Source: an uncultured Candidatus Saccharibacteria bacterium
Lineage (GTDB): Bacteria > Patescibacteriota > Minisyncoccia > Phycocordibacterales > UBA9973
NCBI GenBank assembly: GCA_964423445.1
Contig: CAYREQ010000001.1
Location: 1,732-65,731, forward strand
Reading direction: 5' to 3'
Length of the DNA stretch: 64,000 nucleotides
Positions within the stretch are counted from its first letter, which is position 1; the number at the start of each line of letters is the position of its first letter. The notes beneath the pieces are model-generated. The model was not told the DNA's origin and searched no databases. It was given only the letters and a program-made list of their open reading frames with translations. The position numbers and the translations under genes were made by a program. Shown here piece after piece: positions 10,566 through 60,886 of the stretch.

Positions 10566-11594
10566 ATGTCAACAATATCTTTTAAACCAAAAAAAATTAC
10601 TAAAAAAATAATTTCACATCTTACTGACCGGTCTTTTGATGTTATTATGAATCGTTTTGGTTTGACACCTGACGGTGAGAGACACACACTAGAGGAGATT
10701 GGTAAAAAATATAAAATTACTAGAGAGCGTGTTCGCCAGATAGAAGACGTAGCTCTTTCTGCTATTAAAAAGTCAGATGCTTACAAATTAGAACAAGCAG
10801 CTTTTGAAGAATTGAAACAGCTTATCAAAAACCTTGGTTCAATAATTCCAGAGCATGAGCTTTTGCCATACATATCAAAAGATAAGACGACACAAAATCA
10901 TATTCACTTTTTCCTTACTCTAAGTGATTCTTTTAAAAAGCATCGTGAAGATGAACATTTTCATACTCGTTTTAGTGTAGATGATGAGATGGGTGAAAAA
11001 GTACACGCTACATTAAAAAAGCTTTATACAAGCCTAAAAGATGAAGACCTTATACCTGAGACTGAAATGATTAAAATGTTTTTTGATCATATGAAAGATG
11101 TATCTGAGCAATACCGAGATGACGAAATAGCTAAAAGATGGCTATCTATGTCAAAGAAAATTGCCAAGAATCCATTTGGAGAATGGGGAAAAGCTTCAAG
11201 TCCAAATGTACGTACTCGTGGTGTAAAAGATTATGCTTTCTTGGTCATGAGACGTCATGGTTCACCAATGCATTTCAAAGAGGTAGCAAATTCTATTTCA
11301 AAGACTTTTAATAAAAAAGTTCACTATGCTACTTGTCACAATGAATTAATCAAAGATTCTCGCTTTGTACTAGTAGGTAGAGGAATGTATGCTTTATCTG
11401 AGTGGGGTTACAAGGCTGGTACTGCTCGTGAGGTTATCCGAGATATACTAAAAAGAGAAGGCCCAATGACAAAAGATGATGTTATTGAAAAAGTAAATAA
11501 GGAGAGATACTTCAAGAAAAACACAATTTTAGTAAATCTAGTAAATCCAAAATACTTTAAAGTTGATAAGAACGGATTATACTCTATCGCTTAA
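10566..11594 (+). CDS. hypothetical protein with N-terminal sigma-70 region-4-like HTH only
   Basis: LTDRSFDVIMNRFGL...LEEIGKKYKITRERVRQIEDVAL resembles sigma region 4.1/4.2. No region 2 is present, so this is not a true sigma factor. Confidence 0.45.
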   Translation: MSTISFKPKKITKKIISHLTDRSFDVIMNRFGLTPDGERHTLEEIGKKYKITRERVRQIEDVALSAIKKSDAYKLEQAAFEELKQLIKNLGSIIPEHELLPYISKDKTTQNHIHFFLTLSDSFKKHREDEHFHTRFSVDDEMGEKVHATLKKLYTSLKDEDLIPETEMIKMFFDHMKDVSEQYRDDEIAKRWLSMSKKIAKNPFGEWGKASSPNVRTRGVKDYAFLVMRRHGSPMHFKEVANSISKTFNKKVHYATCHNELIKDSRFVLVGRGMYALSEWGYKAGTAREVIRDILKREGPMTKDDVIEKVNKERYFKKNTILVNLVNPKYFKVDKNGLYSIA

Positions 11595-25634: not shown

Positions 25635-26225
25635 ATGAATGATGAAGAAATAAAACCTGAACCCGAAGAAGTAGAGGATGACGTCGTCGAATTTGAGTTC
25701 AATGATGACGGTGAAGAGGATTTGAAAAAGACTCTAAAAAAGCTTCGCTTGGATTTAAAAGTAGCAAAAAAAGAAAAAGAAGAATATCTGACAGGTTGGC
25801 AAAAAGAGCGAGCTGATTTTGCTAATTATAAAAAGAGCGAAGATGACAGAAAGGGAAATTATAGCGAGAGCTTAAGAGAGCATATACTTACTCGATTTTT
25901 GACGGTAGCTGATAGCTTTAATATGGCTTTTTCAAATCGTGAAGCTTGGGAAAAAGTAGATCCAAATTGGCGTACAGGTGTGGAGTATATCTACTCTCAA
26001 CTAAACAGTGTTTTTGAGGAATATGGAGTAAAAGAGATAGGAAAAGAGGGAGAAAATTTTGATCCAAATATACATGAATCTATAGAGACAGTGGAGACAG
26101 ATAAAAAAGAAAATAACCACAAGATAGCTAAAGTAATTCAAAAAGGTTACAAGATAGGTGATAGAGTCATGCGCCCAGCTCGGGTAAATGTATTCGAGTT
26201 TAAAGATGGAGAAAACACAAAATAA
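25635..26225 (+). CDS. grpE: nucleotide exchange factor GrpE
   Basis: RERADFANYKKSEDDRK coiled-coil region and the C-terminal KGYKIGDRVMRPARVNV beta-domain. Confidence 0.85.
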   Translation: MNDEEIKPEPEEVEDDVVEFEFNDDGEEDLKKTLKKLRLDLKVAKKEKEEYLTGWQKERADFANYKKSEDDRKGNYSESLREHILTRFLTVADSFNMAFSNREAWEKVDPNWRTGVEYIYSQLNSVFEEYGVKEIGKEGENFDPNIHESIETVETDKKENNHKIAKVIQKGYKIGDRVMRPARVNVFEFKDGENTK

Positions 26226-27909
26226 AATCTGCCAGAGCTGTAAGAAAGATTTCGTTGTAGAGCCGGAAGATTTTTCATTTTATGAAAAGATAAAAGTGCC
26301 ACCCCCGACTCTGTGTCCGGAATGCAGACAGCGTCGTCGCTATGCTTGGAGAAATGAACGTACTTTATATCGCCGACCTTGTGATTTATGCGGAAAGAGT
26401 ACGGTGACTATTTATTCTCCAAATAAACCACATAAAGTTTATTGTAATACTTGCTGGTGGAGTGATGGGTGGGATCCTTCTTCTTATGGCGTAGATTTTG
26501 ATTTCAATCGTCCGTTTTTTGAACAATTTCACGAGCTACAGCTTCGCGTGCCTCGTATGGCTTTGCTAAACAAGAATAGTACAAATTCCGAATATACAAA
26601 TCACTCCGCGAATAATAAAAATGCATATCTGTCTTTTGCTATTTTTGATAGCGAAAATATTTCTTACAGTACTTGGATTATGAAAAATTCTTACGACTGC
26701 ATGGACTGTAGTTTCATAAATGAAAAAGGTGAAAGACTATATGAGTGTATAGACTCCAGAACTTCATATCAATGCCAGTACGGCATGTTTCTCAAAGATT
26801 GTTCTAGTTGTTTTTATTGTTATGATGCCCGTGGCTCCAACGATTGTTTTATGTCTACAAATTTGCGAAACAAGAGTTATGTATTTAGAAATACTCAGCT
26901 TACCCGCGAGCAATATTTAGAAAAAATAAAGGCTATTGATTTTTCTTCATTTAAAATTAGGGCTGAGTTGGAAAAAGAATTTAAAGAATTAATAGAAAAA
27001 CAAGCAGTTCACCGCTATGTTGTTAGCGAGAGAAATGTGAATTCAATTGGATCATTGATATATGATTGTAAGAATATTTTTAATGCTTTTGAGCTCGAGA
27101 GGAGTGAAAATGGAAAAAATATTTATGGTGGACTCGAGCTTAAAGATTGTATGGATATTTATCATGCTGGATTTAACACCACCGAGCTTTGTTATGAATT
27201 ACACGGATGTACTAGGCTTTCAAACTGCCAATTTTGCCACCTTTGCTATGACAATATGAATGTGATGTACAGTGATACTTGCCAGAATAGTCAAAATCTT
27301 TTTGGTTGTGTTTCTATAAAAAAAGGTGAGTACATGATTTTTAATAAAAAATACTCGAAAGAAGATTATGAAGCCTTGAAAGAAAAAATTATAGAACAAA
27401 TGAAGACTACAGGGGAATATGGAGAATTTTTTCCACCAAGTATGGCACCAGTTTATTACAACGAAACACAAGGCAATCTTTATATGCCTTTAACAAAGGA
27501 AGAGGTCTTGGCTCGTGGCTGGAATTGGGAAGAAAATATTCCAGGAACTTTTGGCAAAGAGACAATAAAGAGCGAGGATATTCCAGATAAAATAGGTGAT
27601 GTGCCAGATGATTATTTAAAAGAAATTTTTGCCTGCATTGAGTGTTCAAAGAACTATAATCTTACTCAAAATGAGCTTTTGTTTTATAGAAAAGAAACTA
27701 TTCCATTACCCAGAAAATGTCCAAATTGTAGATATAAGAGAAGGTTTGATATGCGCCCAGCGAGAGCTCTATGGCACAGACAGTGTATGTGTGATAAAAA
27801 ACATACAAACCATGAAGGTAGGTGTGAAGTAGAATTTGAGACATGTTATGCTCCAGAACGATCTGAAAAAGTTTATTGCGAAAAGTGTTATCAGCAAGAA
27901 GTTTACTAG
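26206..27909 (+). CDS. large Cys-rich protein with N- and C-terminal zinc-ribbon modules and internal Cys repeats
   Basis: N-terminal CQSCKKDF...FYEKIKVPPPTLCPECRQRRR mirrors C-terminal CIECSKNY...FYRKETIPLPRKCPNCRYKRR; more than 40 Cys in total. The ATG at 26206 overlaps the grpE stop. Confidence 0.5.
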   Translation: MEKTQNKICQSCKKDFVVEPEDFSFYEKIKVPPPTLCPECRQRRRYAWRNERTLYRRPCDLCGKSTVTIYSPNKPHKVYCNTCWWSDGWDPSSYGVDFDFNRPFFEQFHELQLRVPRMALLNKNSTNSEYTNHSANNKNAYLSFAIFDSENISYSTWIMKNSYDCMDCSFINEKGERLYECIDSRTSYQCQYGMFLKDCSSCFYCYDARGSNDCFMSTNLRNKSYVFRNTQLTREQYLEKIKAIDFSSFKIRAELEKEFKELIEKQAVHRYVVSERNVNSIGSLIYDCKNIFNAFELERSENGKNIYGGLELKDCMDIYHAGFNTTELCYELHGCTRLSNCQFCHLCYDNMNVMYSDTCQNSQNLFGCVSIKKGEYMIFNKKYSKEDYEALKEKIIEQMKTTGEYGEFFPPSMAPVYYNETQGNLYMPLTKEEVLARGWNWEENIPGTFGKETIKSEDIPDKIGDVPDDYLKEIFACIECSKNYNLTQNELLFYRKETIPLPRKCPNCRYKRRFDMRPARALWHRQCMCDKKHTNHEGRCEVEFETCYAPERSEKVYCEKCYQQEVY

Positions 27910-30570: not shown

Positions 30571-32550
30571 ATGGAAATCCCAGAAGTACCCTTTAATAGA
30601 GAACTTACTTATCTTGGAATCACTACTTACCGAGATAAAAATCAGCTTTTTGGTATCAAGCGCAAAGATAGGCGTCAGCATGTATACCTACTCGGAAAGT
30701 CTGGTACAGGTAAATCTGTCTTGATGTTCAACATGATAATTCAAAACATCCAAAACGGGGATGGAGTTTGCCTTGTAGACCCGCACGGAGAAAACGTAGA
30801 AGCTGTCCTCTCTGCTATTCCTCCACATAGAATCAAAGATGTGATTTATTTCAACCCTGCTGATGCCGAGCACCATATTGGTTTCAATGTGCTCGAGCTA
30901 GTAGACCCACAGTATAAACATCTCGTGGCTTCAGGCCTCATGGGTATTTTCACAAAAATTTGGGCAAACGCATGGAGTGCTCGAATGGAATATATTTTGA
31001 ATAATACTATCTTGGCATTATTAGATACTCCAGGCTCTACAATGCTCGGTATTCCTCGTATGCTCGTAGACAAAGATTATCGTCAAAAAATAATCGCGAA
31101 TTTGAAAGATCCTGTCATCAAAGCTTTTTGGGTGCACGAATATGAAGCATGGCAAGATAAATTCCGAAATGAAGCTATCGCTCCGATTCAAAATAAAGTC
31201 GGACAATTTTTATCTACTTCTATAATCCGAAACGTAGTAGGTCAGCAAAAAAGTACGATAAATATTTTTGACATGATGAACGAAGGAAAGATTTTTCTTG
31301 TAAACGTATCAAAGGGAAGAATCGGTGAAGACAACTCAGCCCTACTTGGAGGTATGATAATTACAAAAATTCAGCTGGCAGCCATGGAGCGTGTGCGTAT
31401 ACCCGAAGATGAGAGAAAGGACTTTTATTTATATGTGGACGAATTCCAAAACTTCGTGACAGATGCTTTTGCTAGTATTTTGTCTGAGGCTAGAAAATAT
31501 CGGTTAAACCTGACAGTGGCACACCAGTACACAGCCCAGCTAGTGTCTGATAAGAGTACGGCTGTGCGCGACGCAGTCTTTGGAAACGTAGGTACTATGA
31601 TAGTGTTTAGAGTCGGCTCTGATGATGCTGAATTCTTGGAAAAAGAATTTGAACCAGAATTTACTCCGAGTGATATTGTAAATCTTCCAAACTACAAAAT
31701 ATATTTAAAATTGATGATAGATGGTATCACATCTCGTCCTTTTTCAGCAAAAACATTGCCACCTATGGTAAAGTCTGGAAATAAAGAAATAGAAGATGCT
31801 GTTATAAATTCTTCTCGTGAGCTTTACTGTAGGTCCAAAGAAGACGTGGAGAGGGAAATAAATGAATGGAGTGGTATGTCTTTAGGTAGTGATACAGATG
31901 GACTAGGTATGGCTACAGGCATAGCAGGGAAATTTCCAGTGATATGCTCTATTTGTAAACAAGAGAGGACTGTTCCTTTCAAACCTGAGCCAGGCAGACC
32001 TGTGTATTGTAAAGATTGTATAGCTAAAATAAAATCTGGCGAGCTGAAACCAATCAAGGGCTCTATAAAACAAATCAACCAAGACCAAGATAAATTTTTC
32101 AAACCTTTGGCCGATCTCGGCATAGAGTTTACTGTAAAAGCCCCAACAGGTACAAAAGAAACTAGGGCAAATGAAGACAGATACCCAGAGAGACAAGACA
32201 ATCACACAGAAAATAAAATAATTCCTAAAAAGAAACCAGCACCTAATCTAGGATTAAAAGAAGCATTGAAAAAAGTTTTTTCTATACCAAAAGCTCCTGC
32301 GCCTACTCCCGCTCCAGTAGTACAAAGACCAGAGCCAGAGCCTGTATCATTGGATGTTTTAAAAAATAAAATAAAAGACATAGTTCCACAAAAAGACAAA
32401 TCTGCAAGTACAGAAGATAAAGATAAATTAAAAAATTTAATAGCCGGAGTCACACCATCAGCTGAAAAACAGGGAACTGAGCCACCACTAACAGCTGGAA
32501 ACATAAAAGAAGTACCCGAAGACGTACTGAGAAAAATTCTAGAGGAATAA
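30571..32550 (+). CDS. P-loop ATPase of the FtsK/HerA/VirB4/VirD4 (type-IV coupling-protein-like) superfamily, with a C-terminal zinc ribbon and Pro-rich tail
   Basis: Walker A LLGKSGTGKS, then CLVDPHGE; Walker B YLYVDEFQNF; TVAHQY..QL; C-terminal CSICK...CKDC; no TM helices. Confidence 0.6.
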   Translation: MEIPEVPFNRELTYLGITTYRDKNQLFGIKRKDRRQHVYLLGKSGTGKSVLMFNMIIQNIQNGDGVCLVDPHGENVEAVLSAIPPHRIKDVIYFNPADAEHHIGFNVLELVDPQYKHLVASGLMGIFTKIWANAWSARMEYILNNTILALLDTPGSTMLGIPRMLVDKDYRQKIIANLKDPVIKAFWVHEYEAWQDKFRNEAIAPIQNKVGQFLSTSIIRNVVGQQKSTINIFDMMNEGKIFLVNVSKGRIGEDNSALLGGMIITKIQLAAMERVRIPEDERKDFYLYVDEFQNFVTDAFASILSEARKYRLNLTVAHQYTAQLVSDKSTAVRDAVFGNVGTMIVFRVGSDDAEFLEKEFEPEFTPSDIVNLPNYKIYLKLMIDGITSRPFSAKTLPPMVKSGNKEIEDAVINSSRELYCRSKEDVEREINEWSGMSLGSDTDGLGMATGIAGKFPVICSICKQERTVPFKPEPGRPVYCKDCIAKIKSGELKPIKGSIKQINQDQDKFFKPLADLGIEFTVKAPTGTKETRANEDRYPERQDNHTENKIIPKKKPAPNLGLKEALKKVFSIPKAPAPTPAPVVQRPEPEPVSLDVLKNKIKDIVPQKDKSASTEDKDKLKNLIAGVTPSAEKQGTEPPLTAGNIKEVPEDVLRKILEE

Positions 32551-32554
32551 AATT

Positions 32555-34012
32555 ATGCCAAAACCAAATCGAGTACAAATAATCAAATATGGTCCACCGC
32601 CACCAGAGCTTCCAGTCTTTGGTAAAGTAAAACCCGAAGAGGTTTCTTTTATTGGGCGTACAAATTATGTGGCTTCTCTCGAGGAGAAAAAATTCGTTTT
32701 TGGTATAAAGCGCATAGATAGGAGAAGACACCTATATATCATAGGAAAGTCTGGAGTAGGAAAGACAAAATTGATGGAGCTTTTTTTACGCCAAGATATT
32801 TCTTATAATCATGGACTTTGCCTGATTGACCCACACGGAGATGTGATAGATGCGATGCTCGATTATATTCCAAGAGAGCGTATAGAAGATGTGTGCATGA
32901 TAGACCCGACAGATGTAGACTTTCCAGCATCTTTCAATCCGCTTGCAAACGTAGATCCGCTTTTTAAATTTCAGCTCACCCAAGGCCTAATCGAGGTATT
33001 TCAAAAGCAATTCGGTGCAAATTGGACACCTAGACTAGAGCACGTATTTCGTTTTACTTGTCTGGCGCTCTTGGATTACCCACATGCGACAATGCGCGGA
33101 ATGATTTCAATGCTGACTGACAGAAATTACAGACAAAAAGTAGTGGAATATATTACTGATGACATGGTAAAGAGATTCTTTGCTATAGAATTCGCTGATT
33201 GGTCTGAAAAATTTGATACAGATGCTATTATCCCACTCGTAAACAAGCTCGGGCAATTCCTCTCTGACCCACTACTCCGAAATATATTTGGACAAAAGCA
33301 AAACAAAATAGATATTTCAAAATTGATGAATGAAGGAAAAATCATTTTGATAAACCTTTCAAAGGGTCGCCTCGGAGAAGAGAATTCTAGTTTCCTAGGC
33401 TCTATGTTTTTGACAAAAATCAAACAAGCCGGAATGGAGCGGGCGAGTATACCCGAAAAAGATCGTGTAGATTTTTATCTTTATGTAGACGAGTTCCAAA
33501 ACGTCGTCACAAATACTTTTGAAAATATCTTATCCGAGGCGCGTAAATATGGACTAAACCTCACCATTGCTCACCAATATGTAGGACAGCTAATTCCAAA
33601 AGTTCAGCAAGCGGTCCTCGGAAATACTGGAGCACTCATATGCTTCCGTGTGGGTGGTGAAGATGCAGTAAAATTAAAACCAGAGTTTGCCCCAATATTC
33701 GATGTGAAAGATATGATAAATTTGGCTGTCGGAGAAATTTATATCAAGATGACAATAGATGGAGAATCTTACGACCCATTTTCTGCTGAGACTTTAAAAA
33801 TTCTTCCACCGACACATCCTTCATATAGAGAAGAAATAATAGCAGCATCTAGAAGAAAATATTCTATATCAAAGGATGATGCAGCAAAATTGATAGCCGA
33901 AGAAGAAGCTACTATCATCCGAAGTGCTGAAGAAAAGAAAATAATTGAAGGAAAAACAAAAGACAATGTGAATAGTTCTCAGTCTTCACAAGAAGCTGAA
34001 CCTATGATATAG
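32555..34012 (+). CDS. paralogous P-loop ATPase of the same FtsK/HerA/VirD4-like family (tandem duplicate, shorter)
   Basis: IIGKSGVGKT, CLIDPHGD, YLYVDEFQNV and TIAHQYVGQL are collinear with the upstream gene (roughly 40-45% identity by eye). Confidence 0.6.
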   Translation: MPKPNRVQIIKYGPPPPELPVFGKVKPEEVSFIGRTNYVASLEEKKFVFGIKRIDRRRHLYIIGKSGVGKTKLMELFLRQDISYNHGLCLIDPHGDVIDAMLDYIPRERIEDVCMIDPTDVDFPASFNPLANVDPLFKFQLTQGLIEVFQKQFGANWTPRLEHVFRFTCLALLDYPHATMRGMISMLTDRNYRQKVVEYITDDMVKRFFAIEFADWSEKFDTDAIIPLVNKLGQFLSDPLLRNIFGQKQNKIDISKLMNEGKIILINLSKGRLGEENSSFLGSMFLTKIKQAGMERASIPEKDRVDFYLYVDEFQNVVTNTFENILSEARKYGLNLTIAHQYVGQLIPKVQQAVLGNTGALICFRVGGEDAVKLKPEFAPIFDVKDMINLAVGEIYIKMTIDGESYDPFSAETLKILPPTHPSYREEIIAASRRKYSISKDDAAKLIAEEEATIIRSAEEKKIIEGKTKDNVNSSQSSQEAEPMI

Positions 34013-36681: not shown

Positions 36682-37152
36682 ATGCAAAAACCAAGCATAG
36701 GTCGTGTCGATTTCGAAGTCGATCGGTCGAGGAAAATCGTGTTTCCACCTAGCGTTCGTGGAGATGTATTTAAGCCAGAAGACGAGCTTCTGCGTCCTGC
36801 GCAGTACACCTTGGACCATTTGGGTCTTTGGTATGCTGAAGGTCAACAAGGAAAATATCTAAATGGCTGGGAAGTTTTTGCTTCGGTTTCCCAAAAACCG
36901 ACAGAATCCTTTCTCAGCTGGAATGATGGTTTCCAGTTTACAAAATCACCGAGCCTTTTTATCGAGAGGTTCGGCCGCGAAAAGCAGTACGTGCTCTGGG
37001 GCAGTACTGTATTCAACAACGACAAAGGGTTTGTTCCTTTGGTTTACGCTCTTCAGAAAATAGATAAAGTTTTCTTTTTATGGGAAGACCTCAAGAGCGT
37101 CTTTTTCGGGAAAGATCGGCCCGCACTTCGTTTCACCACTCCTGGCACTTGA
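36682..37152 (+). CDS. hypothetical protein, compositionally GC-rich relative to its neighbours
   Basis: AAGGAG ribosome-binding site 8 nt upstream; 156-aa ORF with a terminator at 37188; no recognisable motif. Confidence 0.45.
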   Translation: MQKPSIGRVDFEVDRSRKIVFPPSVRGDVFKPEDELLRPAQYTLDHLGLWYAEGQQGKYLNGWEVFASVSQKPTESFLSWNDGFQFTKSPSLFIERFGREKQYVLWGSTVFNNDKGFVPLVYALQKIDKVFFLWEDLKSVFFGKDRPALRFTTPGT

Positions 37153-50130: not shown

Positions 50131-50916
50131 TTATACAAGTAGAGAGTTTATGTGGTCTATAAGATTTTGGTATTCTTTTTTATAAGCAGGAACAAGTATT
50201 TTTTCTGGAGTAGGCCTGAAAGTTAAGCCTTTTTCAAAAGGGTTTATATCTTCCCCGTCACTATCTGCCCAAAAAAGCTTAATTATGTTTTTCATCATTA
50301 TCTTTGCCGAGTCTTCATTTAAGGGTCTATTTATACAATATCGAAAAGAACCCAAAACAATATCCATTGCAGAACTTAAATTAGATGCGTTATCACATGT
50401 TGAGGAAAATAATTTTATTTTAGTTAATTCTACGTTCCTATCTTTTACTACTAGTCCAGTTGTAAATTTTTCAGAAAGGAATTTATATTCTCCAATATCA
50501 GATAATCTGTCCACGAATACCATGCCAGTAGAATTTTTTTGTGTTAGGTAGTGATTAAATTTACCAACAATATGATCAGCTCCCCACTTTACTGTTTTAT
50601 TTATTCCCTGGCTACTAGCTATCTTATGTAAAACAACATACGCTAAAAATTTACACTCATTTTCTATGCATAAATTAATAATTTTACTTTTTATTTTTGC
50701 AAAGTCAGTAGTACTGATATTTTTTGGTCTAGTATTTGAGTCAAATTTTAAACTATCAGTTGAATTAAAATTGTATTCTTTTCTAATTTTTTTTATTTCA
50801 TCATCAATAATATCTATTTTTTCTAGGGGTATGATCAAACCACCATATGCAAAAAACTTTATTCCAAGATTTTCTTGTTCAGTTAGGTTTGTTTCATCAG
50901 TAAAAAGTAAATACAT
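50131..50916 (-). CDS. hypothetical protein, DUF3800-like (N-terminal LLFTDETNL acidic motif)
   Basis: 261 aa; AT-rich gene after a 238-bp AT-rich spacer. The family assignment is tentative, from memory. Confidence 0.35.
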   Translation of the reverse strand: MYLLFTDETNLTEQENLGIKFFAYGGLIIPLEKIDIIDDEIKKIRKEYNFNSTDSLKFDSNTRPKNISTTDFAKIKSKIINLCIENECKFLAYVVLHKIASSQGINKTVKWGADHIVGKFNHYLTQKNSTGMVFVDRLSDIGEYKFLSEKFTTGLVVKDRNVELTKIKLFSSTCDNASNLSSAMDIVLGSFRYCINRPLNEDSAKIMMKNIIKLFWADSDGEDINPFEKGLTFRPTPEKILVPAYKKEYQNLIDHINSLLV

Positions 50917-57145: not shown

Positions 57146-57174
57146 TTGACTAAAATCATAAAATGTGATATAAA
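57146..57174 (+). promoter_or_regulatory. near-consensus sigma-70 promoter TTGACT-N17-TATAAA
   Basis: Seen in the sequence; 20 nt upstream of the GGAGG site and ATG of the 57195 ORF. Confidence 0.6.
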
Positions 57175-57194
57175 TTTTTTGGAGGTTTTTCTTT

Positions 57195-57410
57195 ATGGCA
57201 AACACGGGAGAAGATGGCTCAATCTCTGAGCCTTTGGATTCAACTTTGGAACTCTCACCAACGGGTGACGAGTCGGCACTGGACATTGATTCAGGCGTTT
57301 TCAAAAAGTTTGATGGCAACCCGGCAAAACCGGACCTGCCATCAGTAGAACAGCGGGCTGCTTTTCATGCTCGTGGAGGCTGGCGACCATCAGGTGGCCG
57401 TAAAAAATAG
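57195..57410 (+). CDS. small hypothetical protein (acidic N-terminus, basic C-terminus), GC-rich
   Basis: Strong GGAGG ribosome-binding site; 71 aa; first gene of a compositionally distinct three-gene operon. Confidence 0.45.
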   Translation: MANTGEDGSISEPLDSTLELSPTGDESALDIDSGVFKKFDGNPAKPDLPSVEQRAAFHARGGWRPSGGRKK

Positions 57411-57421
57411 GAGGAGATGTA

Positions 57422-57778
57422 ATGCCGGAACCTGTCTTGTCGGCTTACCTACGAAAGGCTGGGAATATTGCAATTCTTGACCTTTCTGGGAAGATAACCA
57501 TGGGAGAAGGAGCTGTACGTCTCCGCGTCGAAGTCCGGAGACTTTTAAACGAGGGCTGGAATAAAATCTTGCTTAATTTTGAGCAAGTAAAGTCTGTCGA
57601 CCTTTCTGGTGTTGGCGAAATAAAACTTTGCATTAACTGTGCCGAAAAAGAAGGCGGTGAAATGAAAGGTGAATTTGCTGTAAACATCAAAGATGTCGGA
57701 GAGCTTACTAGGCTCGTTTCGACGATTGACTGTTTCCGGTCCGAGGCGGAAGCTTTATGCTCTTTTAGTGTAAAATAG
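57422..57778 (+). CDS. STAS-domain protein (anti-sigma-factor antagonist, SpoIIAA-like)
   Basis: ILDLSGKITMGEGAVRLRVEVRRLL...ILLNFEQVKSVDLSGVGEI; AGGAGGAG ribosome-binding site. Confidence 0.7.
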   Translation: MPEPVLSAYLRKAGNIAILDLSGKITMGEGAVRLRVEVRRLLNEGWNKILLNFEQVKSVDLSGVGEIKLCINCAEKEGGEMKGEFAVNIKDVGELTRLVSTIDCFRSEAEALCSFSVK

Positions 57779-57787
57779 GGGAAAAAA

Positions 57788-57991
57788 ATGACAAAACGTG
57801 ATAAGCAGTTGCGCAAGCAACGCAGGGCGTATAAAAAACGCTTGAAGGAAAGGATGAAAAATGGCGAAGGCAAAGGCCCGAGCCAGACGCCTTCGCCTTA
57901 CGGCTATAGTCGTAAGGAAGGTCGAGGGCAATCCTCCGCAGGCGATGACTACCGTGGTAGCTGGCGTGCCGGTAGATACGGAGTGTTCTAA
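57788..57991 (+). CDS. small highly basic hypothetical protein (67 aa, RK-rich)
   Basis: Ribosome-binding site GGGGAAAAAA; GC-rich; followed by a strong terminator. Confidence 0.45.
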   Translation: MTKRDKQLRKQRRAYKKRLKERMKNGEGKGPSQTPSPYGYSRKEGRGQSSAGDDYRGSWRAGRYGVF

Positions 57992-58018
57992 ACACAAAAA
58001 TCGAGCTTAAGCTCACAG

Positions 58019-58060
58019 GAATAGCCAGGTGTCTAGGAGGACACCTGGCTATATTAATTT
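58019..58060 (+). terminator. 12-bp hairpin atagccaggtgtc-ctaggagg-acacctggctat plus an AT-run
   Basis: Seen in the sequence. Confidence 0.6.
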
Positions 58061-58112
58061 TTGCCATTTTTTGAAAAATAATATAATATATAGAAGTCCA
58101 TTTATTACATAT

Positions 58113-58170
58113 GGCCCTATCGTCTAACCAAGTTAAATACAGTGGACGTGGTCTTTTTTGAAAATGCAAA
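58113..58170 (+). pseudogene. tRNA-Glu 5' fragment / degenerate partial duplicate
   Basis: ggccctatcgtctaac (58113-58128) is identical to the first 16 nt of tRNA-Glu at 58216; GACGTGG is also shared; there is no T-arm. Confidence 0.4.
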
Positions 58171-58215
58171 GGGTATATAAATGAGACAAAGTGTTTAATT
58201 GTAAGTAAATAGTTT

Positions 58216-58287
58216 GGCCCTATCGTCTAACGGTTAGGACGTGGCCTTTTCAAGGCTAAAATCAGAGTTCGATTCTCTGTAGGGTCA
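58216..58287 (+). tRNA. tRNA-Glu (anticodon TTC), no encoded CCA
   Basis: Acceptor GGCCCTA/TAGGGTC (one G-U pair); D-arm CGTCTAACGGTTAGGACG; anticodon loop TTTTCAA; T-loop TTCGATT. Confidence 0.8.
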
Positions 58288-58335
58288 CAAATACTAAAAA
58301 AGAGTCCACTACTGGGCTCTTTTTTAGTATTTGTG
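58288..58335 (+). terminator. long hairpin caaatactaaaaaagag-tccactactgg-gctcttttttagtatttg after tRNA-Glu
   Basis: Seen in the sequence. Confidence 0.55.
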
Positions 58336-58485
58336 AAGACGGAGGCATAATTCGTGAGTACACGAATAGCCGAGTCCGGGTCTGGAAAATTTTCTTTTGA
58401 CGAAAAGAAAATTATTGTGGACCACGTAAAAAAAGAACCGCCTGAGAACGCGGTTCTCAGGCGGGGTTTTGTGACTGATTTATGT

Positions 58486-59196
58486 TTAGTCGAAATTATA
58501 TCTCTTCTTTGTTCGAAAAAGGTACTTATTGTCTACATTACCTGGGTAAGTATAGACTTGATTTAAATTACCATTAAGATACCCAAGATGATAATTTTCA
58601 TATTTACCTACGGCAAACATGACTGGGTTACCGATTTTTATCGGCACCATGGCAATGTCAAGTGATTCGTTGATTTTCTCTAGATCAAATTTTGGATCAG
58701 CGAGAATTTCTAGAATATCTCCAGACAAACAAGGCTCGAGCTCGTATTTTGGAGCAGCAGCCAAGAGCTCTCTTTGGGTCCAGTTTCCCGGGTATAACCC
58801 GAGCTCTCTCGGCGAGACGGCAGCAAAATATACTTCTTCTTTGCGGTCATTGAACTTGATTTGTTCTTCGAGTTCGAGCAGGTCGAGCGGTACATGCTCA
58901 CTATAAGATATCTCAAAACCTCTTTTGAGAATTTTGTCCACCAAAATCTTTAAAGGCTTTTTAGTTCCAATGTTTGCCTTCGTCCAAATGTTTTTTTCCC
59001 ATCGAGATGGAATTATCCAAGATTGTTGTTTGCGGAGAAATTTATTAAATTCATCCAGCCACATCCTTCCGTTTTCACCGGAGAGATTTACGTTGAGTTG
59101 GTTTAACGGTCCCTGAGCTTCAGAGAGCGTCACTTGAGTGTTTTTCATATTTTTTAAACAGTCAATATATTCTTTTGAAGAACCATACCTGTACAT
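58486..59196 (-). CDS. hypothetical protein
   Basis: 236-aa ORF with no recognisable motif and a weak ribosome-binding site; the start is uncertain. Confidence 0.35.
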   Translation of the reverse strand: MYRYGSSKEYIDCLKNMKNTQVTLSEAQGPLNQLNVNLSGENGRMWLDEFNKFLRKQQSWIIPSRWEKNIWTKANIGTKKPLKILVDKILKRGFEISYSEHVPLDLLELEEQIKFNDRKEEVYFAAVSPRELGLYPGNWTQRELLAAAPKYELEPCLSGDILEILADPKFDLEKINESLDIAMVPIKIGNPVMFAVGKYENYHLGYLNGNLNQVYTYPGNVDNKYLFRTKKRYNFD

Positions 59197-60477: not shown

Positions 60478-60598
60478 ATCTATATATTATACACTATTAG
60501 TCAAATTTTTAAATTATATTGACAAAATTGCGTTTTAAATGTATAAACTAGAAGTAGTTGGTTCTTTATTTTTCAATCCACAAGAAGGAGAAAGTGTA

Positions 60599-60886
60599 AT
60601 GGATATGGATATTACAAAAAGACAGGCTTTGCAACAGCGGTTCTTGAATCGCATGATCAAGGGCGCCGGCGGAAAGGAAAAATTTGATTCGGTATTATTT
60701 CTTTTCGATGCGTATCCGAGCTACGCCGAAGAGGTCGGTAAGAGGATTTTCGAAGAAGTCGAAGCGTTGGAAAATTCAGCCATCGCGGAGGATGAGCAGG
60801 ACGAATTTTCTCGCCAGATGAACGATGTCGCGAGAGCTAAGGGGCTCAACCTCGATGACCCCAGGAACAGTATGATGTTTCCTTAG
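60599..60886 (+). CDS. hypothetical acidic protein, GC-rich relative to its neighbours
   Basis: Ribosome-binding site AAGGAGAAAG before the ATG at 60599; strong terminator immediately downstream. Confidence 0.4.
   Translation: MDMDITKRQALQQRFLNRMIKGAGGKEKFDSVLFLFDAYPSYAEEVGKRIFEEVEALENSAIAEDEQDEFSRQMNDVARAKGLNLDDPRNSMMFP

Follow-up and report, generated by a model that had tools for sequence, protein, structure and literature searches.

A STAS-domain gene with leucine in the phospho-acceptor position in a variable small-gene operon between murF and tRNA-Glu

In STAS-only proteins a conserved serine is the defining switch (PMC8256260). SypA, RbaV and BtrV, each a single STAS domain, act on something other than a classical anti-sigma factor (PMC8256260), and the mycobacterial anti-SigF antagonist RsfA loses its activity when two redox-responsive cysteines form a disulfide (PMC7693655). 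The STAS-like repressor CapS binds DNA and forms a pair with the kinase CapK upstream of immune operons (bioRxiv 10.64898/2026.02.02.703251).

The protein of interest here is the product of the second of three small genes (gene 2). It resembles SpoIIAA and RsbV in fold, size and order of secondary-structure elements (Foldseek TM-scores of 0.69-0.77 to 1til_B, 1th8_B and 6m36_B), it has the invariant Asp and the GxG loop, and the sequences nearest to it carry the annotation of anti-sigma B antagonists. It differs from them in having a leucine, Leu61, at the site of the phospho-acceptor serine, in having no adjacent gene for a kinase/anti-sigma factor, phosphatase or sigma factor, and in scoring far below the curated equivalog cut-off; the company it keeps in its operon is two tiny charged proteins instead of rsbW-sigB or spoIIAB-sigF. 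Like SypA, RbaV and BtrV it is a single STAS domain, but these three keep the serine and have a cognate kinase or phosphatase (SypE, RbaW/RbaY and BtrW/BtrU respectively), neither of which is to be seen for gene 2 in the DNA analysed. RsfA, by its description, is controlled by the disulfide and not by serine phosphorylation, and gene 2 likewise is without the serine and has four cysteines, two of them family-unique; RsfA, however, has a known partner, UsfX/RsbW, and gene 2 has candidate partners only. With CapS the likeness is that of a small STAS-like protein heading a variable accessory operon, but CapS is defined by CapK and downstream defence genes, and the operon here has neither and gives no PADLOC match.

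The stretch of DNA that was analysed, the window, is 64 kb long, and within it the three-gene layout given by the first-pass annotation holds. Gene 1 (57195-57410; 71 aa), gene 2 (57422-57778; 118 aa, a single-domain STAS protein) and gene 3 (57788-57991; 67 aa) are ORFs on the forward strand, separated by gaps of 11 and 9 nt. Their Shine-Dalgarno sequences had all been called strong; this is true of gene 1 (GGAGG, 9 nt upstream of the start) and gene 2 (AGGAGG), and that of gene 3 is weaker (AGGGG). A sigma-70-type promoter-like site can be read on the same strand at 57147-57175, where TTGACT is followed by a 17-nt spacer ending in TGn, so giving an extended -10, and then by TATAAA. The near-consensus promoter that had been proposed is thus present, but a consensus scan passes over it, the last (sixth) -10 base being A and not T, and promoter-like matches in AT-rich DNA here show no enrichment (3 found versus 2.5 expected from shuffles). 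Its real support is not motif frequency but comparison with the corresponding locus of a sister species (L003). The -35, TG, -10 and Shine-Dalgarno elements are identical between the two, and all five differences in the 40 nt from the -35 to the Shine-Dalgarno sequence are in spacer positions, for which the chance is C(15,5)/C(40,5), by the authors' estimate about 0.005. Downstream there is an intrinsic-terminator-like hairpin (58021-58062, forward strand) with a perfect stem (58021-58033 / 58040-58052), a 6-nt loop and a T-rich tail, much as initially described except that the stem is 13 bp and not 12 bp. Terminator-like sites are enriched in the region, with 9 found versus 1.3 expected from shuffles. 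The sequence of the operon is identical across two independent read sets.

That the 118-aa protein is STAS/SpoIIAA-like, as was proposed at first reading, stands despite missed cut-offs, since the HMMER search, the AlphaFold2 (AF2) model and the Foldseek matches agree. The match to Pfam STAS (PF01740) is specific but sub-threshold, 20.2 bits against a gathering cut-off of 22.6 (E = 5e-4), that to NCBIfam SpoIIAA (TIGR02886; E = 1.7e-5) is also below its cut-off, at 24.8 against 114.75, and the anti-anti-sigma model TIGR00377 gives 18.8 against 53.45. A word-indexed homology search finds no protein but gene 2 itself. An exhaustive HMMER search yields 2499 matches at E <= 1e-3 and 197 at E <= 1e-10, with 35-53% identity for the best relatives, and 51 of 52 aligned sequences pass as Pfam STAS, so that membership is transitive. 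The AF2 model (pLDDT 92.4, pTM 0.86) has the beta-beta-alpha-beta-alpha-beta-alpha-alpha fold expected of a STAS domain, and its top 26 Foldseek matches in the PDB are all single-domain STAS antagonists, with E down to 5e-8 and SpoIIAA, RsbV, RsfB and TM1442 at the head. Judged by homology and modelled structure, gene 2 is a genuine STAS protein of the SpoIIAA/RsbV-like kind.

In its loop D60-L61-S62-G63, Leu61 is in the phospho-acceptor position after the invariant Asp60. The position aligns with the first S of the SpoIIAA DSSG motif, presumably Ser58 (own residue count). Comparison with the 149 best relatives shows that D60, G63 and G65 are kept in gene 2, and that 136 of the relatives (91%) have S or T at position 61. 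The four cysteines are C70, C73, C104 and C113; C73 and C113 are found in none of the 149, and the C70-x-x-C73 pair is unique within the family. By analogy with RsfA, these cysteines possibly put gene 2 under redox control. P0007 is the relative nearest to gene 2, with an identity of about 51% in BLASTP and 53% in the HMMER list, and the two are reciprocal best hits and neighbor-joining sisters. P0007 is likewise without the serine (DHSA) and is alone on a 71-kb contig on which there is no kinase. P0002, a more typical relative, adjoins a HATPase_c_2 kinase gene, which indicates that the subfamily is normally a partner-switch component. A further relative, P0085, has three tandem STAS genes; its context and that of P0066 are too short to inform. 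Those members of the gene 2 cluster for which an organism is named are all from Acidobacteriota and are annotated as anti-sigma B antagonists. From these named relatives and from composition, rather than from a rooted tree, it is most likely that the STAS gene reached this candidate-phyla-radiation lineage by horizontal transfer.

The statement of the first-pass annotation that no partner anti-sigma kinase or sigma factor is present accords with what the window holds. With its 20 unnamed ORFs scanned against Pfam and the rest read by eye as housekeeping genes, no RsbW/SpoIIAB-type kinase, PP2C/SpoIIE phosphatase or complete sigma factor was seen within the 64 kb, and the operon itself has no HATPase_c_2 anti-sigma kinase. 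The sole sigma-related match in the window is a protein with Sigma70_r4 and HARE-HTH domains at 10566-11594, 47 kb away. Taken with Leu61, this makes canonical partner switching unlikely, and the leucine favors the further suggestion that the STAS protein probably works in a different context. Partner genes could be encoded elsewhere in the genome, as the window is part of a contig of at least 196 kb. A kinase of the RsbW/SpoIIAB type beyond the window could then be what the STAS protein antagonizes, with phosphorylation on Ser62, one residue downstream of Leu61, as a possible alternative acceptor. The normal kinase linkage of the subfamily, as seen with P0002, and the Sigma70_r4-containing protein lend something to this proposal. 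It is nevertheless an unlikely one, as the acceptor position that is S or T in 91% of close relatives is Leu, the nearest relative is also without S or T there and has no adjacent kinase, the window has neither kinase nor PP2C, and scores with the SpoIIAA and anti-anti-sigma models are far below their cut-offs. A further point is that the literature library searched has no paper on Patescibacteria together with anti-sigma factor antagonists; it also has none on STAS together with the candidate phyla radiation.

The sister species is the one close relative found by MurF scans of genome and metagenome collections, its MurF being 93% identical. At its locus the same promoter and a gene-1 homologue are followed by a second gene-1 paralogue in place of the STAS and basic genes. 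Homology is lost after the end of gene 1 and does not resume until a 42-nt block after the terminator (58054-58095, forward strand; 100% identical to L003 5375-5416), at which the variable segment ends on its right. In relatives whose MurF is 44-75% identical, the interval from murF to tRNA-Glu has different genes or no gene at all, and the operon is missing from relatives whose MurF identity does not exceed 75%. In the collections searched the full locus is present in one species-level lineage only, and the trio was not found together anywhere else among about 5.8 billion protein clusters and genome, metagenome, viral, phage and plasmid collections. The STAS protein and both small proteins therefore do not co-occur elsewhere in what was searched, and the answer to whether the module is next to tRNA-Glu in relatives is that the sister species shares the promoter and gene 1 and that more distant ones have other genes or none. 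The opposite case, in which all three genes are conserved at the locus with ordinary composition, is not what was found either; the locus varies, and in neither species is its composition ordinary. With promoter and gene 1 common to a species that is without the STAS and basic genes, the description of the operon as a compact, self-contained acquired module is hard to sustain.

The gene 1 protein is acidic in its N-terminal half and ends in a basic tail of RGG type. It has no match in Pfam, NCBIfam, PHROG or PADLOC, and its family, for which no relatives were found in JGI metagenomes, is known only from the host species and the sister species, where the homologues are proteins of 76 and 61 aa. 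Its annotated frame is the best of six under the host codon model, with a typical value (0.203). Compared with the L003 homologue, dN/dS is about 0.38 and dN about 14 times that of murF, and over the first 32 codons dN/dS is about 0.9. The open frame, start codon and Shine-Dalgarno sequence are kept in the sister species, and the paralogue is retained there. A motif, EP(L/S)xxxLELxxxGxES, is common to gene 1 and both L003 proteins. Retention of this N-terminal motif (as EPLDxxLELxPxGxES) in three family members with differing C-terminal parts, together with the tandem duplication of gene 1 in the sister species, could bring to mind the conserved leader and variable core of a RiPP or bacteriocin-type peptide precursor, with the downstream genes as accessories. 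But a modification enzyme, protease and exporter are all absent nearby, the motif matches no Pfam or NCBIfam family and so no recognized leader, and the C-terminal RGG region is also common to two of the three members. STAS proteins are not known to have a role in RiPP or bacteriocin pathways, and it is hard to believe that gene 1 encodes such a precursor.

Gene 3 encodes a very basic protein (net charge about +14) with a disordered tail rich in G, R, S and Y. In an AF2 single-sequence model residues 3-24 form a helix (pLDDT above 90), and pLDDT is about 50 elsewhere. A word-indexed protein search returns the protein itself only, and profile comparison shows no relationship to the gene-1 family. 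Its codon use is the most atypical in the window. The annotated frame is the best of six, but with a score of 0.061 it ranks under the 5th percentile of real genes, and where DNA is GC-rich within an AT-rich genome long ORFs arise in several frames, so that gene 3, an ORFan of uncertain coding status, may not be a gene.

The GC content of the operon had been said to exceed that of its surroundings, and a sliding-window scan bears this out; the 915-nt interval ranks first for GC among 1262 sliding windows, at 46.4% against a mean of 36.4% (sd 2.8). When 65 genes are ranked by GC, by GC3 and by how atypical their synonymous codon use is, all three fall in the top five. Amino-acid content accounts for about half of the excess in GC, and codon choice, which departs from host codon usage with z = 3.0-5.7, for the remainder. 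Use of the rare codons GCC, GGC and CGC had been singled out. This is right for GGC, which is 43% of Gly codons in the operon genes versus 15%, but GCC is not enriched (12% versus 13%) and CGC barely so (18% versus 14%), and the clearest excesses are of ACG, CCG, TCG and CGG. The atypical GC content and codon use are features of the locus in both species. As a possible sign of foreign origin the dinucleotide signature was considered too, and it does not stand out (delta* rank 136 of 316). The GC-rich patch was also considered as an RNA gene, but Rfam at a permissive E-value gives no credible match inside the operon; its alternative-frame ORFs have no Pfam match.

The tRNA gene next door merits attention in relation to mobility. 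An intact tRNA-Glu (UUC) is at 58216-58288 on the forward strand (ARAGORN; Rfam 61.4 bits), preceded on the same strand at 58112-58157 by a degenerate copy of its 5' half that neither ARAGORN nor Rfam calls. Two direct repeats, D4 (17/17 nt) and D6 (13/14 nt), link the copy to the intact gene, and the similarity stops within the anticodon loop, where integrases are known to cross over. The breaks of the Logan contigs lie within the tRNA gene or beyond it (window positions 58243-58400); strain heterogeneity was considered as their cause, and there is no evidence for it. The pseudo-copy, the adjacency of operon and tRNA gene, the atypical GC content and the variability among relatives of the murF to tRNA-Glu interval, which is empty in L019, would all suit a mobile element or genomic islet that had integrated at tRNA-Glu and of which a remnant is left. 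Yet the half-copy lies downstream of the operon, as does the intact gene, and they do not bracket it, no direct repeats flank it, and no integrase, transposase or other mobility gene is present within several kb. The promoter and gene 1 are common to the sister species, relatives of gene 2 were not found in viral contigs, phage records or plasmid records, nor those of gene 3 in viral contigs, and neither gene has a PADLOC or PHROGs match. Of the usual marks of a genomic island the locus then has atypical composition and absence from relatives, but not an integrase or bracketing repeats, and its dinucleotide signature is ordinary. An origin by integration at tRNA-Glu is quite improbable, and the first description, of a small acquired accessory module, is right only in part.

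That the conserved serine is lost fits functional decay equally well. The locus could be a relic in which an acquired STAS gene is under relaxed selection and the flanking ORFs are spurious or new, with little or no function. The most conserved functional residue of gene 2 is gone, the locus is in a single species-level lineage, the coding score of gene 3, an ORFan, is borderline, and the rapid non-synonymous change in gene 1, above all in its first 32 codons, points the same way. The intact STAS ORF with a confident model (pLDDT 92), two strong Shine-Dalgarno sequences, conserved promoter elements and identity of sequence in the two independent read sets do not fit decay well, nor does the gene 1 of the sister species with its frame, start, Shine-Dalgarno sequence and paralogue kept and an overall dN/dS of 0.38. 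Decay has a minor but appreciable chance of being the right account.

The reading preferred, with moderate confidence, is of an operon of small genes that is lineage-specific, turns over fast and encodes a non-canonical STAS-only protein. Its site is the variable interval between murF and tRNA-Glu in the genome of a Nomurabacteria-like member of the Parcubacteria, and the three genes are framed by a single sigma-70-type promoter and a single hairpin terminator. The promoter and gene 1 would be older than the split from the sister species, and the segment after gene 1 would have been exchanged, leaving the STAS gene and a basic ORFan here and a second copy of gene 1 there. The STAS gene is of an RsbV-like subfamily whose named members are all from Acidobacteriota, and its entry was most likely horizontal. 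With the full STAS fold, Asp60 and the G63/G65 loop kept, the protein should still bind a protein partner, and with Leu61 in place of serine a serine-kinase/PP2C cycle would be unable to switch it off. It may thus be a phosphorylation-independent binder, controlled by the amount made or possibly, as in RsfA, by whether its four cysteines are oxidized or reduced. The small proteins of genes 1 and 3, opposite in charge, mostly disordered and presumably co-transcribed with it, are candidate partners or may be independent passengers. A more elaborate version would have a cassette-exchange site at which a fixed promoter and a gene 1 with conserved head drive swappable cargo, the cargo here being a kinase-free switch with a non-phosphorylatable, possibly thiol-sensing STAS protein toggling between the acidic gene-1 and basic gene-3 proteins, but that this is so is very unlikely.

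The locus is a lineage-specific curiosity and not a new kind of system, and it makes no long-standing question testable; it should be kept in mind, as a warning, that the trio does not recur as a module. A practical gain is the corrected model of gene 2, 118 aa versus the 92 aa on record at NCBI. The locus is also a clean two-species example of the turnover of small orphan genes behind a conserved promoter beside a tRNA gene. Bacteria of the candidate phyla radiation have very small genomes and few regulators, and a STAS protein without the serine, and with no kinase in view, suggests that the fold is reused there as a simple binding module.

The three ORFs downstream of mraY-murF follow each other closely on the plus strand: gene 1 (57195-57410, 71 aa), gene 2, which encodes the STAS protein (57422-57778, 118 aa), and gene 3 (57788-57991, 67 aa), with gaps of 11 nt between genes 1 and 2 and 9 nt between genes 2 and 3. 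A promoter-like TTGACT-N17-TATAAA with a TGn extension (57147-57175, plus strand) lies 5′ of them and a terminator-like hairpin followed by a T-rich tail (58021-58052, plus strand) lies 3′. The ORFs, the promoter string and the hairpin are thus present as the first-pass annotation described them, except that the perfect stem is 13 bp rather than 12 bp and that, of three Shine-Dalgarno sites it rated as strong, only those of genes 1 and 2 are so, that of gene 3 being weaker. A generic promoter scan, in which promoter-like hexamers occurred in window DNA at chance-level frequency, did not return the site because its -10 has a final A. Its conservation in L003, the corresponding locus of a sister species whose MurF is 93% identical, is nevertheless real support for a predicted promoter: between the -35 and the Shine-Dalgarno, a span of 40 nt, the two sequences have 5 differences and all 5 are in the spacer, for which our own estimate of the chance probability is ~0.005.

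The window, at 36.4% GC, is an AT-rich stretch of a candidate-phyla-radiation genome, and the operon interval, at 46.4%, is the highest of 1262 sliding windows (mean 36.4%, sd 2.8%), which bears out the elevated GC remarked on at first reading. When 65 genes are ranked by GC, by GC3 and by how unusual their synonymous codon use is, genes 1-3 all place in the first five, alongside two orphan ORFs, 36682-37152 (plus strand, 156 aa) and 60539-60886 (plus strand, 115 aa). These two deviate in composition in the same way as the operon (GC 0.45-0.46, GC3 0.45-0.50, codon use atypical with z = 4-5), and neither has a Pfam match. Recoding the operon proteins with host codon frequencies gives a predicted GC of 40-46%, and so about half of the GC excess comes from a protein composition rich in Gly, Arg, Pro, Ala, Asp and Glu. 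The rest is codon choice (z = 3.0-5.7), with GGC, ACG, CCG, TCG and CGG enriched; of the GCC, GGC and CGC codons originally singled out, GCC and CGC are without clear enrichment. The dinucleotide signature is ordinary. The sister-species homologues of gene 1 are equally GC-rich (GC3 0.41-0.53 vs 0.30-0.34 for murF and mraY), and therefore the anomaly, judged by composition, belongs to the locus in both species and is not that of one very recent arrival.

Alignment of the locus with L003 at the DNA level shows conservation through murF, promoter and gene 1; after gene 1 similarity is absent until a 42-nt block (58054-58095) that begins one base past the terminator stem. The variable segment in the window is ~640 nt, with the STAS gene, gene 3 and their own terminator, and in L003 it is ~335 nt, with a paralogue of gene 1 and a different terminator. 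As promoter and gene 1 are common to L003, where the paralogue occupies the place of the STAS gene and gene 3, the proposal of a self-contained acquired module does not hold, and by this alignment the three genes are not a module. Relatives at 69-75% MurF identity have unrelated genes downstream of murF. Public-genome MurF relatives are MAGs labelled Candidatus Nomurabacteria, Saccharibacteria, Kaiserbacteria and Yanofskybacteria, and the loci compared downstream of murF were L004, L005, L007, L008, L009, L019 and L021. Where MurF identity is 44-75%, the relatives have a tRNA-Glu (CUC) 0.3-2.1 kb beyond murF, in most cases minus-strand; the genes in between differ, with none in L019. The window instead has a tRNA-Glu (UUC) on the plus strand (58216-58288) and different downstream genes. 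Given an interval variable or empty among relatives and the switched tRNA-Glu, the stretch from murF to tRNA-Glu is a hotspot at which gene content changes and synteny is broken. Beside the tRNA-Glu of L004 (8921-9169) and L005 (8559-8819), from genomes of ~40% GC, are small GC-rich (0.50-0.56) ORFs that are membrane-protein-like and match no Rfam family.

The intact tRNA gene is preceded, at a distance of ~100 nt, by a degenerate duplicate of its 5′ half (58112-58157), with 17/17 and 13/14 nt matching, a 15-nt D-loop replacement, and similarity stopping in the anticodon loop. Recombination at the tRNA may have left this half-copy as a scar. That the locus is the remnant of an integrative element is nonetheless very unlikely: neither an integrase nor bracketing repeats were found there, searches of viral, phage and plasmid collections gave no relatives, and there were no defence-system or phage-family matches. 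The operon contains no RNA family. A T-rich, TTGAAA-containing stretch precedes each tRNA-Glu copy (58067-58092 and 58154-58179), and a 24-nt inverted repeat (96% complementary; 58285-58336) starts within the tRNA 3′ end. Before a convergent orphan gene of 236 aa (58486-59196) lies a GC-rich 12-bp hairpin (58438-58464) that has T-runs on either strand and looks like a bidirectional terminator. Two independent Logan assemblies end at window positions 58235 and 58242, the following contig starting from 58401. Elsewhere in the window, a 261-aa protein (50131-50916, minus strand) matches PDC-M04A, a candidate defence model of PADLOC (E = 1.2e-5), and has no Pfam match, and two tandem TrwB/TraG (VirD4)-like coupling-protein ATPases (30571-32550 and 32555-34012, plus strand) are encoded between dnaK and dnaJ, the first of them having a treble-clef zinc finger, as has a protein at 26188-27909.

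Outside L003 no homologue of gene 1 was found. In L003 a 76-aa orthologue occupies the equivalent position and is closely followed by a 61-aa paralogue; all three proteins share EP(L/S)xxxLELxxxGxES near the N-terminus, a motif not found elsewhere in the window or fetched loci. Gene 1 is very fast-evolving (dN = 0.58, dS ~1.5, dN/dS ~0.38 against its orthologue; murF has dN = 0.042, dS = 0.74), yet its frame, start and Shine-Dalgarno are kept, and with a codon-model score typical for real genes it is regarded as one. That it specifies a peptide precursor is highly improbable. Gene 3 had no homologue in protein searches or viral contigs and is unrelated to the gene-1 family; a single basic helix (residues 3-24) with a disordered tail is predicted for it. 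The annotated frame of this putative gene is the best of six, with a score of only 0.061, below the 5th percentile of real genes, and the several long ORFs overlapping it on the opposite strand are expected in GC-rich DNA. Functional decay of the locus, with which the gene 3 score would fit and the maintenance of gene 1 would not, is unlikely.

Gene 2 gives specific yet sub-threshold matches to Pfam STAS (20.2 bits, cut-off 22.6) and NCBIfam SpoIIAA (24.8, cut-off 114.75), and its PDB sequence matches, though weak, are nearly all STAS antagonists. A word-indexed search returned only the protein itself, as an NCBI product annotated as 92 aa, but an exhaustive HMMER scan gave 2499 relatives with E <= 1e-3, identity being 35-53% for the best of them, and 51/52 of the sequences aligned with it are bona fide Pfam STAS proteins. 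An AlphaFold2 model built with the HMMER-derived alignment (pLDDT 92.4) has SpoIIAA, RsbV, RsfB, TM1442 and other antagonists as top Foldseek matches; with relatives and model in agreement the STAS call, already made from the sequence, is sound. The public NCBI call starts at Met27. The 118-aa start is judged correct since beta strands 1-2 (residues 7-25) align with homologues and AGGAGG precedes the ATG; the model also favors it.

In canonical STAS-only proteins a partner kinase/anti-sigma factor phosphorylates a conserved-loop serine and a PP2C phosphatase removes the phosphate (PMC8256260). This serine comes immediately after the invariant Asp and is aligned to the leading S of the SpoIIAA DSSG motif (Ser58 by our own residue count). 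The position is Ser/Thr in 136/149 best relatives and Leu61 in the window protein (D60-L61-S62-G63), which keeps D60, G63 and G65; by sequence, gene 2 is a STAS-only protein with a non-canonical loop. Canonical partner switching, with distant partners and Ser62 as acceptor, is therefore an unlikely alternative. Neither an RsbW-type kinase nor a PP2C nor a complete sigma factor was found in the 64-kb window, as had been noted for kinase and sigma factor; the sole sigma-related domain seen is in a Sigma70_r4 plus HARE-HTH protein (10566-11594, plus strand, 342 aa), 47 kb away. The nearest relative, P0007, has ~51% identity by BLASTP and 53% according to the HMMER list. It is the reciprocal best hit and NJ sister and carries DHSA at the acceptor site; its gene, surrounded by housekeeping genes, stands alone on a metagenomic contig of 71 kb that has no kinase gene. 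P0002, a more typical relative, adjoins a HATPase_c_2 kinase gene. Organism-named cluster members are all Acidobacteriota (Pyrinomonadaceae, Blastocatellia). P0085, of the same NJ clade, is encoded by one of three STAS-only genes that stand in tandem on a short metagenomic contig (L027, 282-1580). The window protein has four cysteines, of which C70 is common among relatives, and C73, completing a CxxC, and C113 occur in 0/149. Mycobacterial RsfA is a precedent for an antagonist that a disulfide linking two of its cysteines can switch (PMC7693655).

There is specific evidence against each of the four alternatives. The observation of the operon is confirmed overall, and of its initial interpretation the STAS identity and lack of a kinase in the window stand and the acquired module does not. 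Best supported is a lineage-specific, variable small-gene operon whose middle gene is horizontally derived and encodes a non-canonical STAS-only protein. As it keeps the fold and loop scaffold, this protein probably still binds a protein partner. It is beyond control by phosphorylation at the canonical site, with control perhaps exerted through expression level or thiol redox, and the flanking charged proteins may be its partners or passengers.
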